From: an uncultured euryarchaeote
GTDB taxonomy: Archaea; Thermoplasmatota; Poseidoniia; Poseidoniales; Thalassarchaeaceae
NCBI GenBank assembly: GCA_937911265.1
Contig: CALDRG010000057.1
Location: forward strand, 19,025-83,024
Direction of reading: 5' to 3'
DNA length: 64,000 bases
In this document: piece after piece, positions 4,153-59,319 of the stretch
How positions within the stretch are numbered: position 1 is the first letter of the stretch
How the letters are laid out: each line of letters starts with the position of its first letter
The notes under the pieces: model-generated
Database searches by the model: none
Told to the model about the DNA's origin: nothing
Seen by the model: the letters and a program-made list of their open reading frames with translations, nothing else
Translations under genes and position numbers: made by a program

Positions 4153-7100
4153 ATGACTATAGTGCGAATGCTGTCAATCGTTCAACCGCTGACTCTGGCA
4201 ACCCTGGTGGTCATGATGTCCTTCATTGGCTTCATGACGATGGACGAGAAGGTCGAGAAGGTCGAAGAAAGAGAGCAATTGATGCAGGAGGAAGCGCCGC
4301 TTTACGCTACCAGTCCAGGTCACCCTGTGTTCGGCGAGTACGTCGGCGCACACTGGTGCCCTCCTTGCATGGACAGCGCATCACCCTCGCTTTACAATCT
4401 GAAGACGTCAAATCCAGAGGATTTCACATTCGTCTCAATCTTTGAGTCCGAATCAGATGGTTGGCCCTCGGACAGCCCAATAAATCGACAGGACCACGTC
4501 ATGGCAGCCTCAAGTGGTTACCCTACATTCTCTTTCGCCGATGAGCAGAGTGGGACTTGCTTCAAGGTTGGCGCAGCCGGAACAAACTACTACGACGCAG
4601 ACTACACGAACGGTGGCTGCATGAGTTCGGATGTCTCCGACTACGCTGTCGAGCTCTCAATCGCTCTCGATTCAGTGACCAACGATGTCACCATCACCGT
4701 AGAGTCGACATACCTCGGTTCATCGTCATCCGTGACTGTCTACCTCTACGCAGCAGTGACTGAGAAAATTGGCGCTGATGCCTACGACAATGGTGTACGA
4801 CCTCACCACAACTGGAGAGAGTGGCTGCTGAACAGCAACGGGGACGGCTTCGAGGAGATGACTCTGACTCCGAACAACGTCGCTGAGAGGACTTGGACTG
4901 TTCCACTCAACACCGTTAGGGCCACTTCGGGTAACACCCAGTACGAGAACTTCTGGCCGGTAGTCGCTCTGATGGATGGCCCACACACATCCTACAACGA
5001 CTTCCTAACTGCAGCGGACCTAGACATGGCACCGCTCATCGATATCGGCATCTCTGATTTCGATGTCGTCAACCAGAATGGCAACCTCGGATTCGTGCCT
5101 GGAGACACACTCGACCTAACCATCGAGGTCACCAACTTCGGTGTCGATCCCTACAATGATGGCGGCGAGATATCGATTTACGAGCTCGTCGGCCTAGACG
5201 AGGTCTACGCCGGAGGTTCGTCAATCACCAATCTCGCTTCGGGAGGGACCCAGGTCCTCACGATCCAGTTCGACACCTCTGACATAGAGCCCTACGCATC
5301 CGGCTCCACGACCTTCAGGGCGAAACTCTCGGGACTGACAGGTGACCGTGTCTCCTCCAATGACTACACGGACGATAATGCCCTGCATGACATGGCCCCG
5401 GTCGCCAACCAACCAACCGCCATCGCTTCCACCTCCATAGAGAGGGGCAGTACAATTCAGTTCGAGTCCACGGCTCTGTCTAACGACATGGTCGACGACA
5501 TGTCATCAATGACGCCGACTCTGCATTACGCTGAGTCAGGAACTGACATGTGGGACAATTCATGGATAGCTTCCTCCGACTTGGTCGGCAGCGGAGGAAA
5601 CGCTCGCTATGTGTTTACCATCGACGCACCTCTCAATGCTGAGGTGGGAGATTACGATCTCAGGGTCCGCTGGGTGGATGCTGGTGGCCAGTACGGCGAC
5701 TGGTTGATATCCGAGGAGGCCTTTGAATTGCGTAACGCCCTGCCTGTGGTGCTGAATAGCGATTACCCGCAGTACGCAGGAATGCCGACTGTCAAGGTTG
5801 AGACTCAGGAAAGAGTCTCCATAATGGGTCTGGTGTACGATGCCGAGACCCCGCTTTCAATGCTGCAGATTGACAGCAACTCGCCCGAGTTCATCGAGTG
5901 GGACTCGTCCTCGCTTGAGATTGTTGTCGAGTTCAGCGCGGTCATCAGGGACAGCCAAGGCAATCCTATTCCTCAGGGTATATTCGTCACTATCAATGAC
6001 GGTGATGACAGCAACTCAGGCATGATGATGTTCAACGTGGTGGAGAATGGCGCCCCAAGGTGGGCACCGGTCCCTTCGCAATCGTTCAATGAGGGTGGCT
6101 CGGCCAGCTTCGGTCTGTCTGAGTACCTTTCAGACACTGATGACAACGGCTATCTGGTGCCGGTTTCTGGTCTGACCCTAGAGTTGCTGGGGATATCTAA
6201 CGGAGCCCTAGTAGATGCAAGTATCTCGGGACATACCCTCTCCGTCAGTGCCATAGATGACGACTCCATTGGCGTCGTAGACCTCACATTGAGGGCCAGC
6301 GACGGAGTCAAATTCTCGGACACCGTCATCACGTTCCACGTACTGAATGTCAACGACGCCCCGCGGATGGAAATGGCTGGAATTGACGAATTCACCGTCG
6401 AGATTGGAGACAGGATAACCCTAGAACTCCTTGACCTAATGACGGATATCGATGACCCCGACGAGGAAATCTGGGCGTCTGCGATGACCTTCGTTGCGGG
6501 TGCCGCCCAGTTCAACCCGATTACCGGCATCCTGACCATGGCTTGGGAAGAGGCTGGGACTGAGATTGTGACCATCACTCTAGAGGATAGGCACGGCGAC
6601 GCCAGTGCCTACCTGATTACGGTCACTGTTGTTGACGATATGCCACTCTACTGGGATACGGACCTAGTTGCGACTTTCAGCACCATCGAGTATGGTTCAA
6701 ATCCCTCTGTTATCATCGACAATGTTGGTCAGCACGAGCTCAGTAACATCAGGATTACTTGGACGGTATGCAATAGTATAACTGGAATCTGTCACTCCTC
6801 GGGAGTTTCGCACAACTACGGGCCATTCATCGTCTATCCAGTGAGTGGCGAAGGACTTGGGGTAGGGGACTACGTCACCCTCTCTGCTGAGGGCGAAGAC
6901 GAGAACGGATTCGATCGAGTCACAGAGGAGCAGTTCCGAGTATATGCGACTGAGGTCGAGGAGGTCATCGAAGAACCCGTTGAGGAAGAGGCCAATACCA
7001 AGACTGGCGGCATAAGTTCGATGATGTCAGCAGGCCTCATAACTCTAGGACTAATGCTGTCAATCGCTCTTGTACTGGCGCTGGCCATCGTCCTGCGCCG

Positions 7101-29438: not shown

Positions 29439-31340
29439 ATGCGCCGCCTGACCTATCTCGCCGTGCTCCTCCTACTCTCAGGCCCTCTGGCCGGTTGCAC
29501 CTCGCCCCCGGATGACGCCGAAACTGCGTCCGGATGCACCTATCCGGATGCGCTCAATTTCAACGAGTCGGCCGTAACAGACGACGGCTCCTGCGAGTAC
29601 CCCGAACCGCTCGAGGAGACCTCCGGGTGCATGTACGAGCGGGCCACCAACTTTGAGGAGGGTGCCACGGTTGACGACGGCTCTTGCGAGTTCCTGCAGC
29701 CTACCGAAGAGAAACCTGGATGTACCTACTCAAACGCTTTGAATTTCGATGAGAACGCCAGTGTAGACGACGGCTCTTGCGAGTTCCTGCAGCCTCCCGA
29801 AGAGAAACCTGGATGTACCTACTCTAACGCTTTGAATTTCGATGAGAACGCCAGTGTAGACAATGGTTCGTGCGAATTCAGACCCTACCTGGTCTTCGGA
29901 TGTAATGACACGACTGCACTGAACTTCGATGCCAACGCCACGTATAATGACGGATCTTGTGAATATATCACCCAACACGTTTTGATGGTGCTCATCGATG
30001 GATGGCGTCCTGATTCGATAGCTGCTGGACAAACTCCTACAATCGACATGATGATGCCAGATAGTGCCTATTCTATGGCAGCCAGAGTTGAGGACACAAC
30101 GATTAGTGGTTCGGGACATTCCAGTTACCTAACAGGGGTTCACCGTGACAAGCACAATGTCCATAGCAATAATTTCGAAGACCACAACTACAATCAGTAC
30201 CCCTACTGGTTCCGCCTTCTCCGAGATTCTGCACCCGACACCCATCGTTCAGCATATCACAACTGGCCGACTATGTCGGATGCAGCACTCGACGAATCCG
30301 TCTGTTCCGGCTGTGGAGATTACTTCCAGGATTACGACCAGAATATCGTCAATCGGCTAGTTGCTGATTTAGCGACTAAGGAGATGAATGCAGCAACCCT
30401 CGTCCTAGATCTTATGGACGCGCGCGGACATGGCAGTGGATTCAACAGTGCGAATCCGCAGTATATCGCTGGAATGAATCAGACTGACATTTGGCTGGGT
30501 GAAGTCATGGATGCAATCTTCGCACGACCGAATTACGTCAATGAGGAATGGATGGTCATCCTCTCCTCTGACCATGCAGGAACCGGATACGGCCACGGCT
30601 ACAACATCCCCGAGCATAGAAATGTCCCACTAATTATCTGGGGGGCGGAATCTCCAGGGGAGATATGGCCACCACCTGACGCGGTGGATGCGGTGCCTAC
30701 CGCCTTGCACCACCTCGGAGTCGATATCGATCCCGCGTGGAGCCTCGATGGACGCGTTATCGGCATCGATCCGACCGCATCTCCGATCGCTGCGCTAGGC
30801 GTTAATCTAATCTTCAACGGTGACGGAGAACTTGAGCGTGGAATGACTCCCGGAATCGACGCATCGGTGCCGGGTTGGGTCGACAATGGAACGATGACGA
30901 CCTGGATCTACAACGTCCCGACATATCTGCAAACTACCGATCCCGGGCCCGCGAACAGAGGATCGAACTACTTCGGAGGTGGATCTGGTGATACAACGAT
31001 GTATCAGGAGATAGATCTCACTGGTATTGAAGCAGATATTGACTGGGGTAATCTGACCTACTCACTAACAGCATATCTGGGCGGGTATTCATCTCAGAAT
31101 GATCGCATGGAAGTACTCGTCGAATTCTTCGATTCGTCAGGTAATCTCCTACTTTCGGGAGGAATTGGGCCCGTCAATGCCGCTGATCGCAACGACACGA
31201 CTGGAATCTATCTTCATAGTGAAATAGGCCAAGTACCAGTGAATTCATCTTGGGTTCGAGTCACATTGAACTCATATCTAGAAACCGGCTACAATGATGC
31301 ATACGCGGATAACGTTTCACTGATTCTCTCAACTCAATGA
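29439..31340 (+). CDS. Predicted lipoprotein: Cys-flanked GCT...DDGSC repeats, alkaline-phosphatase-superfamily (nucleotide pyrophosphatase/phosphodiesterase) domain, C-terminal jelly-roll-like domain
   Basis: LAGC lipobox; five GC...A.NF...A..DDGSC units; VLIDGWR, TISGSG, DARGH, SSDH metal-ligand motifs. Confidence 0.8.
   Translation: MRRLTYLAVLLLLSGPLAGCTSPPDDAETASGCTYPDALNFNESAVTDDGSCEYPEPLEETSGCMYERATNFEEGATVDDGSCEFLQPTEEKPGCTYSNALNFDENASVDDGSCEFLQPPEEKPGCTYSNALNFDENASVDNGSCEFRPYLVFGCNDTTALNFDANATYNDGSCEYITQHVLMVLIDGWRPDSIAAGQTPTIDMMMPDSAYSMAARVEDTTISGSGHSSYLTGVHRDKHNVHSNNFEDHNYNQYPYWFRLLRDSAPDTHRSAYHNWPTMSDAALDESVCSGCGDYFQDYDQNIVNRLVADLATKEMNAATLVLDLMDARGHGSGFNSANPQYIAGMNQTDIWLGEVMDAIFARPNYVNEEWMVILSSDHAGTGYGHGYNIPEHRNVPLIIWGAESPGEIWPPPDAVDAVPTALHHLGVDIDPAWSLDGRVIGIDPTASPIAALGVNLIFNGDGELERGMTPGIDASVPGWVDNGTMTTWIYNVPTYLQTTDPGPANRGSNYFGGGSGDTTMYQEIDLTGIEADIDWGNLTYSLTAYLGGYSSQNDRMEVLVEFFDSSGNLLLSGGIGPVNAADRNDTTGIYLHSEIGQVPVNSSWVRVTLNSYLETGYNDAYADNVSLILSTQ
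29673..29858 (+). repeat. Tandem 93-bp duplication (2 near-identical copies) encoding 31-aa Cys repeats
   Basis: GACGACGGCTCTTGCGAGTTCCTGCAGCCT... starts at 29673 and 29766; a third, diverged unit starts at 29859. Confidence 0.9.
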
Positions 31341-55234: not shown

Positions 55235-55295
55235 TGATTCCTGACAAACGCGACAACCCACGACCCTTAACCCCTGCAAGCATCTCCGATTTCGC

Positions 55296-56288
55296 ATGGC
55301 AAGGGCGCCAGCGTGTGCAACACGCACGGTTTCCATCATTGCAGTGCTGACTACCCTGCTCATTGTTTCCGCTCCCTCCGTTGCCGCAGATCAGGAGGCC
55401 ACCTGGGTGCGAACATCCCCTGGTGTGTGGATGCTGGAGGACTCTCAGGGCCTGCTGCACGAGCCGCAGCCTGAGGCAGGACTGTTCCTCAGCCCTGTCG
55501 TGGGCGAGTTGGTAGATGTTTCAGTGAGTGGTTCGACGGCAGGGACATGGTCCATCAATGGAATCCTCTCATATGGCCAGCAGGAATTCCAGCAGGACGC
55601 CCCGGATTCTCAAGGTAGAGAACCGATCCTAGATTTCTCACTGCCAGTCGTTCCATATATCTCTGCATTCCTCGCAGTCATCCTTTTCTCTCTCGCTTTG
55701 GTTTCAGCGGGAGATGAGCCGACAAGGGCGAAGATGGTCAGGTCCATGGGCCGCTTCTCACAACTCAGGGTCACTGAGGGTTCCGGCACACTGGCCGGAA
55801 CCCACCAGAGAGGGCGACTCGAGGGCTTTCTTACTGCACATCCCGGCTGCCACCTCTCTGGCATAATTCGTGCTCTTGAGATGGGTAATCATCAGGCAGT
55901 GCACCATCTCAGAATTCTAGAGAACGAGGGCCGTGTGTGGTGCAGGCGCGACGGTCGCCTACTGCGCTACTACACTTCGGCAGTCGACCGCGCCGCAGAG
56001 TTATCCAACCTACCTCGTCCGGTCGATGCCAATCAACTCAGTGATGTGGCTCTGATGGTGCTGCGCTCGATAGTCGAGCAAGAGGATGGACGACCCTCTC
56101 CGACACAGAGGGAATTAGCATCGAGACTTGAGACTAGTCAGCAACTGGTGGGGCACCATCTGAAGAGACTTGAATCGCAGGGACTAATCACCCGCAAAAG
56201 GAGTGGATTGCGCACCAATCGCCAGCTTACGGAAGAGGGTATGAGGCTATGGGCGACGCTTGTAGAACCTCTCTCTTCGAGGCTTTGA
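55296..56288 (+). CDS. Membrane-anchored winged-helix transcription regulator (signal peptide, extracellular domain, TM, two wHTH)
   Basis: Signal peptide ending PSVAA; TM VPYISAFLAVILFSLALV; wHTH1 HPGCHLSGIIRALEMGNHQAVHHLRILE; wHTH2 TQRELASRLETSQQLVGHHLKRLE. Confidence 0.8.
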   Translation: MARAPACATRTVSIIAVLTTLLIVSAPSVAADQEATWVRTSPGVWMLEDSQGLLHEPQPEAGLFLSPVVGELVDVSVSGSTAGTWSINGILSYGQQEFQQDAPDSQGREPILDFSLPVVPYISAFLAVILFSLALVSAGDEPTRAKMVRSMGRFSQLRVTEGSGTLAGTHQRGRLEGFLTAHPGCHLSGIIRALEMGNHQAVHHLRILENEGRVWCRRDGRLLRYYTSAVDRAAELSNLPRPVDANQLSDVALMVLRSIVEQEDGRPSPTQRELASRLETSQQLVGHHLKRLESQGLITRKRSGLRTNRQLTEEGMRLWATLVEPLSSRL

Positions 56289-56340
56289 CAAATCCAATGA
56301 CCCACTTTCCTTTAAGGTGAAAAGAGGCGCCCTCTGGTTG

Positions 56341-59319
56341 ATGTACAGGACTTCCCGAGAAAGAAACAACCGTCGCCGAATCCATACTGGTCTTTTCCTA
56401 GTTGCCCTGATGCTGGGTTCTGGATGCTTGGGTGCCACCGATGAGATTGTTGAGCAGCCAGAGCCGTCGGTAGTGACTGCCAGTGTGACTATCGAAGGCT
56501 CGCCGACCTCGGCCAGCAATCTGATCATCGCAAACGCTGTCATTGAGGAAGGAACCGCCCCTTTCATCGCCAACTGGCGCCTCGATGGTGTACTCGTCCA
56601 GACATCCAACAGCTTGGCCTACGATGCAGGATTCCTCTCAGTTGGGACTCACACCATCGAGGTAGAGTTGACTGATTCGATGGGTGCTTCTACTGTGTCA
56701 ACGGTCATATTCACACTGATTGAGCCTAACAGGGCGCCTACTGTCTCACTTGAACTTCCTTCCGAGGGCATTGCAGGAGTTCCCATTGCTTGGTCCGTGG
56801 ACGCTACCGACCCTGATGGCGACAATCTAGTGGTAGAGGTGGACTTCTCGGATGGCGCCACTCTGCGCGACCTCTCTGGTCAGCATATTTGGGGTGAGCC
56901 GGGAACCTACTCGGTCCGTGTATCGGTCACTGACACCTCGGGCTTCCTAGCCACTGCGCAGGAATCGATAAGAATAGACGACGCGAAAGCCCCATTGCTC
57001 ACCGTTTCAACCAATCCCTCCCCTCAGGGGCGCATACACCTCAATCTGGCCGGTGAACTCAGCATCGCCACTGTAGCAGAGGATCCAATGGGACCAACCT
57101 CTGTCTCGATCGACTGGGGCGACGACTCCACATCCGACCCGGCTATGGTCGATGAATCGCATCAGTACTCCGAAGAAGGAATCTACGTGGTCCGTGTGAC
57201 TGCCACAGGACCCACTGGAATTACCACTGAGCGCGTGTTCCACGTCGAAGTGGTTTCAGTCGCCGACGATCTAGAGGCCGCGCAGCTCCAAGATGAGCTG
57301 GAGGGTGAGGCTGAGGAGCAGTTGGAAAACGAAGTCGAGCAGGGGCTCGACCCTGACGGCGATGGTACTGTCGACGAGGTTACCGAGGCCCAGAGCGACT
57401 CTGAGTATGACTGGCAGTCTGATTTCGACTCAGACGGGGATGGATACTATGATGACGACCAAGAGGTCGATGACTGGGTGACCACCGATGAGGAATCAGT
57501 GCGCGACGAGGTTGGCGACGAGGAGGAGGCCGACACCATCCCGAGCGACCCCCTGATGATTCAGAGCAGCGTCGTCAACGAGGATGAGATCCCCTCGGAG
57601 GACGAACTCGCCCCAATCCCACTCGAAAACGCAGCGAGGACTGAGATAGTCGAACCCGTGTTCGACGAGGCATGGGGAGAAATCGATGACTCCTCTATGC
57701 AAGAGCAGACCTACTCGCGTTCCATCTCGCAAGTAACGGCCACGTGGTGGAACGACAGTTTCTGGGAGGACTGGGATAACGACGGGGTCGCAGAGACCCT
57801 CTGCCACAGGACGGTAGGCGTGTTCTGGTTCGACTCGGACGGCGTCCCGGGTCCCGAGCGCATCATCCTAGTTCGCAACACTCAATGCTCGCACGACCGC
57901 GACGGCGACGGGCAAGATGACCTCTTCTTCACACGCTTCAGAGGGATGGACCTCGTCGATCAGAATTCAGATGGCATACCCGAGCGACACGACGTCCTGA
58001 CCAGGACCGTGTGGACTTGGGACAATGGCACCTACGAGGACGTCAACATACACCTGTTCGTTCATGCCCGGACCGATGCCGACCAAGATGGTAATCTGGA
58101 GCGCAGGGTTATCTTGAACCGGGATCAGAGGATGGTCGATCAGGGCATCGGCTCGGTCCTGACCGCCTACTTCTCGCACTCTCGACTCATCCATCGCATC
58201 GATGGTAACGATGACGGCACTCCCGAGCGCTGGATGGCAATCGACCACACTTCATGGGTCTGGGACCCCACCGAGGACGGCAATGCCGACCGCCATCGTG
58301 ACAACCTGCGAGCGGTCGTAGTCAGGGACACCAACTCCGACGGCAACGTCGATGTGGTCCGCGCGCTTCAGCAGAACACCGCTCAGTTCGACAACGACTC
58401 CAACGGCGTCATCGAATTGCAGTGGACATGGCGAGCGGGGGTCCTCAAGGTCGACACCGACCACGACGGCGACCTCGACTACACCGCCCGCATGCGAGGC
58501 TGGCACCAGCACTGGGACTGGGGGATGGTGGAGCACCACATCCACCGGTTCGCACTGACTCGCATGGTCGACGACGATGCGGATGGGACGCTTGAGTGGA
58601 AGCAGAGGATCATACACATGTCCAATGCGACCGACTGGGACTTCGACCACTACCTAGAGCAGCGCGAGTCATACACTGCTACCCTGACATGGTGGGACCC
58701 CAATGAGGATGGCTCTGAGGAGCATGTCTTCAGACGGGTTAGGGAGACGTTGTACCTCGATGAGCACGCCCACGGATGGACGTATATCTCCGAGGAGACG
58801 CGCTCGATGGAGCTATGGCGCAACTCATGGCAGCAGCCGCATACCATCCGTATCAGAGTGGCCACCTTGACAGCGTGGGACAACAACTCAGACGGCAGTC
58901 CTGATACCTACCACTATCTGAGTCGGACCTGGCAGGCAACTGATACCAACGACGACGACTTCCTCAACCGTAGGGTGTTCCACCGTCACTACATGGGGCA
59001 GAGGGACGACAACGCTGACGGCAACGTGACTTCCGCTGTCAATAACAACATCTGGCACGCGAGAAACCTCTCGCTCTCTTCCACCGGTAGCATCGAGGTA
59101 CTGCAGGAGGGCTATCTCTCACACTCCGTGTTCGAGTGGAACATCAATCCCCAGGGTCATGCTTACCGCACCAACAGCACTTGGGTCGGATTCCAGATTG
59201 ACTACGTCGCCGGCACCTCCCAAGGCCTCACCGTCACGGTCATCACCATAGATTCCGACCAGGACGGCACGCCCGAATCGCAGACCATAACCACCGCAGG
59301 ATCGGGCAACCCTCCCTGA
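56341..59319 (+). CDS. Large predicted lipoprotein: PKD/Ig domains, acidic linker, C-terminal 21-aa periodic DxDxDG repeat domain
   Basis: RRR followed by hydrophobic stretch and GSGC; PKD motifs (DFSDG, HIWGEPGTY, DWGDD, HQYSEEGIY); periodic motif counted by hand. Start 56317 or 56341. Confidence 0.85.
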   Translation: MYRTSRERNNRRRIHTGLFLVALMLGSGCLGATDEIVEQPEPSVVTASVTIEGSPTSASNLIIANAVIEEGTAPFIANWRLDGVLVQTSNSLAYDAGFLSVGTHTIEVELTDSMGASTVSTVIFTLIEPNRAPTVSLELPSEGIAGVPIAWSVDATDPDGDNLVVEVDFSDGATLRDLSGQHIWGEPGTYSVRVSVTDTSGFLATAQESIRIDDAKAPLLTVSTNPSPQGRIHLNLAGELSIATVAEDPMGPTSVSIDWGDDSTSDPAMVDESHQYSEEGIYVVRVTATGPTGITTERVFHVEVVSVADDLEAAQLQDELEGEAEEQLENEVEQGLDPDGDGTVDEVTEAQSDSEYDWQSDFDSDGDGYYDDDQEVDDWVTTDEESVRDEVGDEEEADTIPSDPLMIQSSVVNEDEIPSEDELAPIPLENAARTEIVEPVFDEAWGEIDDSSMQEQTYSRSISQVTATWWNDSFWEDWDNDGVAETLCHRTVGVFWFDSDGVPGPERIILVRNTQCSHDRDGDGQDDLFFTRFRGMDLVDQNSDGIPERHDVLTRTVWTWDNGTYEDVNIHLFVHARTDADQDGNLERRVILNRDQRMVDQGIGSVLTAYFSHSRLIHRIDGNDDGTPERWMAIDHTSWVWDPTEDGNADRHRDNLRAVVVRDTNSDGNVDVVRALQQNTAQFDNDSNGVIELQWTWRAGVLKVDTDHDGDLDYTARMRGWHQHWDWGMVEHHIHRFALTRMVDDDADGTLEWKQRIIHMSNATDWDFDHYLEQRESYTATLTWWDPNEDGSEEHVFRRVRETLYLDEHAHGWTYISEETRSMELWRNSWQQPHTIRIRVATLTAWDNNSDGSPDTYHYLSRTWQATDTNDDDFLNRRVFHRHYMGQRDDNADGNVTSAVNNNIWHARNLSLSSTGSIEVLQEGYLSHSVFEWNINPQGHAYRTNSTWVGFQIDYVAGTSQGLTVTVITIDSDQDGTPESQTITTAGSGNPP
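57769..59319 (+). repeat. Cryptic protein-level tandem repeat, 21-aa period (63 nt), about 25 units
   Basis: Of the first 21 units starting at DWDNDG, 18 are exactly 21 aa and three are 18-19 aa; no obvious DNA-level identity between units. Confidence 0.88.

Follow-up and report, generated by a model that had tools for sequence, protein, structure and literature searches.

A candidate transmembrane regulatory cassette for a large surface lipoprotein in a Marine Group IIb archaeon

We analysed a 64,000-nucleotide stretch of DNA (hereafter the window) from a Marine Group IIb archaeon of the Thalassarchaeaceae (assembly GCA_937911265.1, contig CALDRG010000057.1, positions 19,025 to 83,024), focusing on two adjacent, co-oriented genes. 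The first encodes a transmembrane protein with two winged helix-turn-helix (wHTH) domains, here termed the regulator (55296–56288, plus strand), and the second a large predicted surface lipoprotein (56341–59319, plus strand). The explanation that we favour, with moderate confidence, is that the first protein is an autoregulated transmembrane one-component regulator which also controls the promoter of the lipoprotein gene. The pair stands out by the architecture of the two proteins, by its conserved pairing, by a box common to both promoters and unique to them in the genome, and by transcription of both genes in seawater.

In the proposed circuit, the two genes would form a small regulatory cassette in which the regulator acts as a transmembrane one-component transcription regulator. 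Its tandem winged helices would bind a 20-nucleotide box upstream of the transcription factor B recognition element (BRE) and TATA element of both promoters, and the state of its ectodomain would set the expression of both genes. Control of the lipoprotein promoter by the regulator would apply to Thalassarchaeum and its sister lineages. The lipoprotein itself would be anchored by its lipobox cysteine, most likely after export via the general secretory (Sec) pathway.

The uncultured Marine Group II archaea rank among the most abundant archaea of the plankton. To our knowledge, almost nothing is known of the regulation of their cell surface. Comparative sequence alone provides here a minimal testable circuit, which consists of a regulator of defined topology, a 20-nucleotide candidate operator, two putative leaderless promoters and a single structural target, and the pair offers a case of a putative membrane-bound gene switch in archaea that is open to testing. 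If the circuit holds true, it would provide a way to learn at which times these archaea put a large calcium-loop surface protein to use, plausibly in attaching to particles or polymers, and a model for PF24266, a widespread uncharacterised Pfam family.

A common box at the two promoters

The first copy of the box (TGACAAACGCGACAACCCAC; 55242–55261, plus strand) is located in the promoter of the regulator gene, where it would be a candidate operator for autoregulation; it hardly varies within the genus and is also retained in the sister lineages. The consensus of the box reads TGACAAAYnCnAnnnnCCCAC. It is followed by the TATA-like element CCTTAAC (55265–55271, plus strand), which ends 24 nucleotides before the ATG at 55296. 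The second copy (TGACAAATCCAATGACCCAC; 56286–56305, plus strand) belongs to the lipoprotein promoter and overlaps the TGA stop codon of the regulator gene. Its TATA-like element CCTTTAAG (56309–56316, plus strand), again 24 nucleotides before the ATG at 56341, is invariant in 17 sequences of the genus, while the flanking codons vary. Both promoters have the same layout of TGACAAA-N8-CCCAC, 3 nucleotides, CC(T)TTAA, 24 nucleotides and ATG, and the distance from the start of the box to the ATG is 54 nucleotides for the regulator and 55 nucleotides for the lipoprotein. Since no Shine-Dalgarno-like sequence was detected ahead of either ATG, both promoters appear to be of the leaderless archaeal type, with the box immediately ahead of the BRE position.

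An alignment of the 52-nucleotide spacer across orthologues showed that the block CTTGACAAAYCCRATGACCCACTYYCCTTTAAGGTG is almost invariant between variable flanking codons. In locus L048 the second box copy is fully intergenic, and its conservation is therefore not due to the overlapping stop codon. No Rfam RNA family matched the conserved intergenic block.

Searching the 1.46-Mb genome with TGACAAA-N8-CCCAC returned just two matches, namely both promoters, and the separate proximal pattern ACCCA[AC]-N3-CC?TTT?AA identified the same two promoters only; since these patterns were derived from the two sites themselves, the count in a single genome is not unbiased. The replication of the box across genomes and lineages is independent of the choice of pattern. 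Exactly two matches to GACAAAYNCNANNNCCCA, one at each promoter, were found in each of the 14 genus genomes carrying both, compared to 0–1 matches with a reversed-pattern control. Sister lineages, whose regulators are 51–55% identical, keep the box at both promoters, and here the two copies co-vary and are more alike, as in L104 (ACAAACGCGACGTCCCA and ACAAACGCGACGCCCCA) and L105 (ACAAACACGACACCCCA and ACAAACGCGACACCCCA). In most lineages, the box takes the form of a direct repeat, GACAA-N4-GACAA, followed by CCCAC, and in the distant lineage of L049 and L057 the related sequence ACAAAT-N7-CCCAC precedes the regulator gene's TATA box. The box was not found in promoters of paralogues or of long-form and soluble relatives of the regulator, for which the start codons are uncertain. 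A third box-like site in the window genome (C70:20060) falls within coding sequence on the opposite strand and was taken as a chance match, as was a site in genome G005 (G005:C28:81122).

That this regulator is the protein which binds the box is what we infer from these comparisons. With regard to the direction of control, we lean towards activation rather than repression, because the box is positioned upstream of weak TATA elements, which is reminiscent of the sites of archaeal activators, for example the boxes of ArnR (PMC6396743).

Metatranscriptome contigs from seawater cover both genes. The depth of these contigs increases several-fold exactly over the invariant box (window 56272–56333), and contigs break at 56291–56294, likely because co-occurring strains share this stretch and the assembly graph converges there. 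Given the breaks at the box and a single contig that crosses the junction of the two genes, the contigs were uninformative as a test of co-transcription or of transcription start sites.

Architecture and export of the two proteins

The regulator comprises 330 amino acids with a signal peptide (residues 1–31), an ectodomain (32–112), a transmembrane segment (approximately 113–140), two winged helices (166–232 and 245–311) and a C-terminal helix. Kyte-Doolittle analysis revealed two hydrophobic segments at residues 5–32 and 110–141. An AlphaFold 2 model, which was based on an alignment of 15 diverse homologues, shows an N-terminal helix (6–25), a beta ectodomain (32–91) with a predicted local distance difference test score (pLDDT) of 65–75, a disordered stalk and a transmembrane helix (121–138) between ectodomain and winged helices. 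These are followed by two winged helices of helix-helix-helix-strand-strand order (166–227 and 250–311; pLDDT 80–93) and a final helix. A preliminary description of the window, made from its sequence, had proposed an open reading frame with a signal peptide, one transmembrane segment and two cytoplasmic wHTH domains. The reading frame, the Pfam matches given below, the hydropathy profile and the model all agree with this, and the predicted transmembrane helix parts the ectodomain from the DNA-binding domains as proposed. The extracellular segment, which had been put at about 100 amino acids, is likewise present as an ectodomain of about 80.

The N-terminal segment ends in the A-x-A-type cleavage site SVAA|DQE, and basic residues follow the transmembrane helix. 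Since the A-x-A motif is kept in all orthologues, the mature regulator is most likely a type I membrane protein with its ectodomain outside and its DNA-binding domains inside the cell. The ectodomain (55389–55631, plus strand) is a small beta module with a conserved first half (W..T..G.W.LED...L..P.P..G), and relatives of 850–980 amino acids contain a homologous juxtamembrane module. Across lineages, the cytoplasmic domains are 67–95% identical and the ectodomain only 25–72%, the pattern expected of a fixed operator and a changing input.

Residues 169–232 match Pfam PF24266 (HTH_HVO_0163_N) with 46.5 bits (cut-off 31) and residues 248–304 match Pfam MarR_2 with 39.2 bits (cut-off 27). The NCBIfam ArsR/SmtB model NF033788 (HTH_metalloreg) aligned to two stretches with 48.6 bits, which is under its cut-off of 55. 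There was no match to Trans_reg_C, and the DNA-binding domains are C-terminal and of the ArsR/MarR type. In Foldseek searches, the single winged helices superposed on DNA-bound MarR/ArsR proteins with 2.1–2.4 Å over 82–85 residues. Both recognition helices contain an ArsR-type signature (GNHQAVHHLRILE and SQQLVGHHLKRLE) which is invariant among the aligned homologues.

The lipoprotein has 992 amino acids with a lipobox cysteine at position 29, three PKD/Ig domains (residues 45–305), an acidic linker (306–455) and a C-terminal beta-repeat domain (456–992). It had been described as a co-oriented protein of about 1000 amino acids directly downstream of the regulator, which is correct; a possible GTG start at 56317, corresponding to a gap of 28 bp, was ruled out by 1-nucleotide indels that break the frame between this codon and ATG 56341 in two orthologues (L017 and L054). 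The ATG is conserved and gene callers agree on it, so that the true gap is 52 nucleotides. A 1466-amino-acid frame in genome G002 that appeared to be a fusion is an artefact of an N-masked stretch.

The signal peptide of the lipoprotein begins with a positively charged n-region, continues with a hydrophobic core and ends in GSGC. The RRR before the core and the GSGC that had been noted are indeed present, and the cysteine together with its preceding glycine is invariant among homologues down to 30% identity. When compared to the consensus [LVI][ASTVI][GAS]C, the lipobox reads GSGC or SSGC in the genus and LAGC or FAGC in deeper homologues. The three Ig-like PKD domains were modelled with a pLDDT of about 80 (AlphaFold 2), and PKD_4 of Pfam matched in two stretches with 65.2 bits (cut-off 27). 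The linker is largely disordered and contains 37% aspartate and glutamate. Fourteen DxDxDG-type loops, spaced by 21 or approximately 42 residues, characterise the 537-amino-acid C-terminal domain, which was modelled at low confidence (pLDDT 45–65) as about 26 long strands joined by these loops. No Pfam model and no confident Foldseek match was found for this domain, and its family is tiny, with 29 matches among 1.84 billion representative proteins. The Foldseek matches of the lipoprotein, to adhesins and S-layer proteins, come from the Ig/PKD part alone. We propose that the three Ig-like PKD domains and the large calcium-loop beta-repeat domain display an adhesin-like or binding surface.

Export via twin-arginine translocation (Tat) had also been considered for the lipoprotein, and our data lend it no support. 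A twin arginine before the hydrophobic core exists only in Thalassarchaeum and its sister lineages (NRRRIH, SRRKPL), where the residues after it deviate from the Tat consensus S/T-R-R-x-F-L-K, and it is absent from the leaders in L049, L058, G021 and G025. The genome contains TatA and two TatC genes. It also encodes about 30 open reading frames (for example in the window region at 29439, C57:48463, and at C61:173) with short signal peptides ending in [LS][AST]GC and followed by an acidic stretch, of which only four contain a twin arginine. This Marine Group IIb genome thus seems to be rich in Sec-type lipobox proteins. Because the twin arginine is confined to some lineages and off consensus, and because the signals of the other lipobox reading frames are mostly short with a single arginine, export via Sec and subsequent lipidation is the more likely route and Tat the less likely one. 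The tatA gene lies 2.3 kb upstream of the pair, as previously noted, but this carries no information on the pair: it belongs to a block of 14 collinear genes and is situated away from the pair in other genomic contexts. Its proximity was therefore dropped as a hint of Tat export.

Conservation of the pair and alternative explanations

In the genus, the lipoprotein gene adjoins the regulator gene in all 15 genomes that contain the latter. The whole 14-gene neighbourhood is collinear across these genomes, so that adjacency inside the genus was discarded as an argument for linkage and other genomic contexts were consulted. A scan of metagenomes with the regulator alignment yielded 69 loci, 45 of which contained a full-length orthologue with a short ectodomain and enough downstream DNA. 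The lipoprotein gene was directly downstream in 45 of these 45 loci, including sister lineages at 51–55% regulator identity. Moreover, the pair exists in three genomic contexts. Besides the slot between the DedA and YspA genes, it is found between genes for a TSP3-repeat protein and an S8 peptidase (L049–51; regulator 34% and lipoprotein 32% identical), and after ctaB and an HMGL-like gene (L057), where the regulator gene is frameshifted. In genome G001, both genes are deleted from the DedA-YspA slot, and in genome G013 both are replaced there by one gene. The linkage, judged from these sequences, is conserved well beyond local synteny, and the adjacency suggested in the preliminary description holds in relatives.

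Several observations were made around these loci. The regulator gene in L057 (3855–4942) is spread over two frames (264 and 148 amino acids), which reflects either a pseudogene or an assembly error, and L058, with the same neighbourhood, lacks a regulator gene altogether. A decayed promoter remnant with the box persists between the DedA and YspA genes of G001 (L135, G001:C1, approximately 4935–5140). The replacement gene in G013 (L133, G013:C39, 4016–6040, minus strand) encodes a secreted protein of 674 amino acids similar to arylsulfotransferases (ASST), and it retains the promoter, the box and the first approximately 15 codons, i.e. the signal peptide start, of the regulator gene. A conserved palindrome, TATCTA-nn-AGATA, sits in an AT-rich stretch of the lipoprotein promoter of the distant lineage (L049:2520–2560; L057 and L058, approximately 4930–4970); as the palindrome is present with or without a regulator gene, another factor may use it as an operator. 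Furthermore, the lipoproteins of sister-lineage loci (L106:4598–7537 and L107:7139–10078; compare L099:7269–10199) show either 45% or 79% identity to that of the window, with flanking genes at 59–72% identity, and the 79%-identical copies carry the sister-lineage type of promoter box. From the sequences, it looks as if the lipoprotein gene was exchanged between lineages with a breakpoint near the gene start.

The functional tie between membrane regulator and lipoprotein that had been put forward gains support from the linkage and the common, co-varying box. Apart from the origin of the search patterns mentioned above, five points weigh against it. Three lineages (L058, G021 and G025) have the lipoprotein but no regulator; that the box is missing from their lipoprotein promoter is, by itself, in line with a box that tracks the regulator. 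The lineage of L049 and L057 has the box at the regulator promoter only, and none before the lipoprotein gene. Genome G013 lacks the regulator and nevertheless keeps the box ahead of an unrelated gene. The RNA contig that crosses the junction indicates that read-through transcription may also occur. Finally, the modelled tandem winged-helix arrangement also loosely resembles ESCRT-II and ScpB, which are scaffolds without DNA binding.

Alternatively, the adjacency might be inherited synteny and the box might belong to another factor, for example a paralogue of 292 amino acids with a transmembrane segment and two wHTH domains, or be a general promoter element. In that case the regulator would have a different target, or no role at this locus. 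The collinear neighbourhood, which makes adjacency within the genus uninformative, would be in line with this, as would the intact box in G013 and the presence of paralogues with the same DNA-binding module in every genome. However, three unrelated contexts harbour the pair, and where it is missing from the DedA-YspA slot the two genes have been lost or replaced together. In 14 genomes the box occurs at just the two promoters, the promoters of paralogues and long forms lack it, and it follows the regulator gene down to 34% identity. We consider inherited synteny improbable.

Even less credible, and in our view very improbable, is that the tandem winged helices constitute a membrane-tethered scaffold for protein interaction or DNA tethering, similar to ScpB or ESCRT-II, and that the two genes are merely a co-transcribed operon. 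It is true that the Foldseek matches of the whole tandem module are tandem winged-helix scaffolds, i.e. ESCRT-II and ScpB, and that one RNA contig spans the junction. Yet these matches are weak, with TM-scores of 0.17–0.27 and a root mean square deviation above 12 Å, and the single domains fit DNA-bound MarR/ArsR proteins much better. The recognition helices are ArsR-like and invariant, soluble homologues of 155 amino acids consist of the two winged helices alone, and a conserved TATA-like element precedes the second ATG at a fixed spacing.

The regulator belongs to a family of several forms. In other Poseidoniales families or genera, the closest homologue is a protein of 850–980 amino acids in which a large ectodomain is joined to the same juxtamembrane module, followed by a transmembrane segment and two winged helices. 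The two long forms whose loci were examined (L021:1477–3594 and L037:4830–7622, both minus strand) are encoded immediately upstream of leuS, and one of them contains a BsuPI-like domain. Soluble proteins of 155 amino acids with two winged helices (L116:6010–6474, L117, L118 and L129; 42–46% identity) show that the module exists without a membrane anchor. PF24266 was detected in all relatives examined, i.e. short, long and soluble forms, and was above threshold also in L021, L126 and L002. In G021, a paralogue of 238 amino acids is encoded behind a surface protein of more than 1050 amino acids with a C-terminal anchor (L039, G021:C8, 83–3160 and 3274–3990). This paralogue, whose two hydrophobic segments lie close together, lacks an ectodomain and carries the same two winged helices, and the locus is a second case of a giant surface protein next to a member of this regulator family.

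Lipoprotein or periplasmic co-sensors are known from bacterial sensors, such as NlpE-CpxA and ToxS-ToxR. The lipoprotein could similarly be the partner or co-sensor of the regulator, supplying a ligand-binding surface in place of a lost large ectodomain and signalling via the juxtamembrane module. Such a role is conceivable because relatives in other Poseidoniales families fuse an ectodomain of 550–700 amino acids to the same juxtamembrane module, transmembrane segment and two winged helices. Moreover, the window genome has no long-form regulator, the short form always adjoins the lipoprotein, and the further short paralogue in G021 directly follows a giant surface protein. On the other hand, the long-form ectodomains have no detectable similarity to the lipoprotein (E ≤ 1e-5), the genes for the lipoprotein and a long-form regulator are unlinked in G021, which has both, and the two partners do not co-vary, since L106 and L107 combine an ectodomain of 25% identity with a lipoprotein of 79% identity. 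Altogether, a co-sensor appears unlikely, and it does not exclude transcriptional control of the lipoprotein by the regulator. Combining the two, it may be speculated, as a rather doubtful extension, that the genes form a self-contained, exchangeable sense-and-display unit. Having given up the large ectodomain of its relatives, the regulator would sense the state of the lipid-anchored calcium-loop protein via its small juxtamembrane module. The lipoprotein would then be both output and extracellular input in a feedback loop acting on two promoters with the same operator, and the family would represent a general archaeal device fused to or placed beside large surface proteins.

Comparison with known systems

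Lipidation of lipobox proteins in archaea has been established in Haloferax (PMC12462473). Similar to the archaeal lipoproteins of the AliA/AliB pathway (PMC12462473), the signal peptide described here ends in [SA][SA]GC with an invariant cysteine, although in this genus the −3 position is occupied by G and not by L, V or I. The tandem Ig-like domains of the lipoprotein resemble those of PKD/Ig-repeat adhesins, as shown by the Foldseek matches to adhesins and S-layer proteins.

The first winged helix of the regulator is linked to the PF24266 proteins of archaea by a score above the family cut-off. We found no functional study of this family, and the sole full-text match for HVO_0163 was an unrelated acetylome paper. 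Members of the ArsR/SmtB and MarR families typically regulate themselves from a site in their own promoter. Repressors of these families (MepR-DNA, 4LLL; ST1710, 3GFI; CzrA) share the winged-helix fold and the recognition-helix signature with the regulator. They are, however, soluble homodimers which bind inverted-repeat sites and sense a ligand within the dimer, whereas the regulator comprises two divergent copies in one membrane-anchored chain and its putative box resembles a direct repeat. With this tandem, membrane-anchored build and an NF033788 score under the cut-off, it does not qualify as an ArsR/SmtB metalloregulator.

In its overall organisation, the regulator has the features of a transmembrane transcription regulator (TTR), i.e. 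a recognised DNA-binding domain and a transmembrane segment that parts the outside from the DNA-binding part. As in ToxR, CadC and TcpP (PMC10269533), an extracytoplasmic domain, a single transmembrane helix and a cytoplasmic DNA-binding domain are combined in one polypeptide. ToxR and CadC have an N-terminal winged helix of the OmpR/PhoB type and a C-terminal periplasmic sensor (type II), while the order is reversed in the predicted type I regulator, with a cleaved signal peptide and two tandem winged helices of the ArsR/MarR type. Judging by this reversed topology and the other DNA-binding family, it is not a member of the ToxR/CadC group.

The regulator also differs in architecture from ArnR, which consists of an N-terminal helix-turn-helix domain, a cytoplasmic sensor-like region and two C-terminal transmembrane helices, and is not known to have a large domain outside the cell. 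According to a survey from 2023, ArnR and ArnR1 of Sulfolobus are the only archaeal membrane-bound one-component regulators that have been studied (PMC10269533), while nearly all archaeal genomes are predicted to encode TTRs (Demey et al. 2023, PMC10269533). In Sulfolobus acidocaldarius, ArnR and ArnR1 activate transcription from boxes upstream of the BRE/TATA of the surface-structure gene flaB and also act on aapF and upsX (PMC6396743). The pair described here differs in phylum and DNA-binding family, and its candidate target is a lipoprotein instead of a type IV pilus-like filament. As far as the sequence tells, it shares with the Sulfolobus system a box ahead of the BRE/TATA of a gene for a surface structure. 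Functions of the surface or envelope are often under the control of TTRs, and we propose that the regulator likewise acts on its promoters from the membrane.

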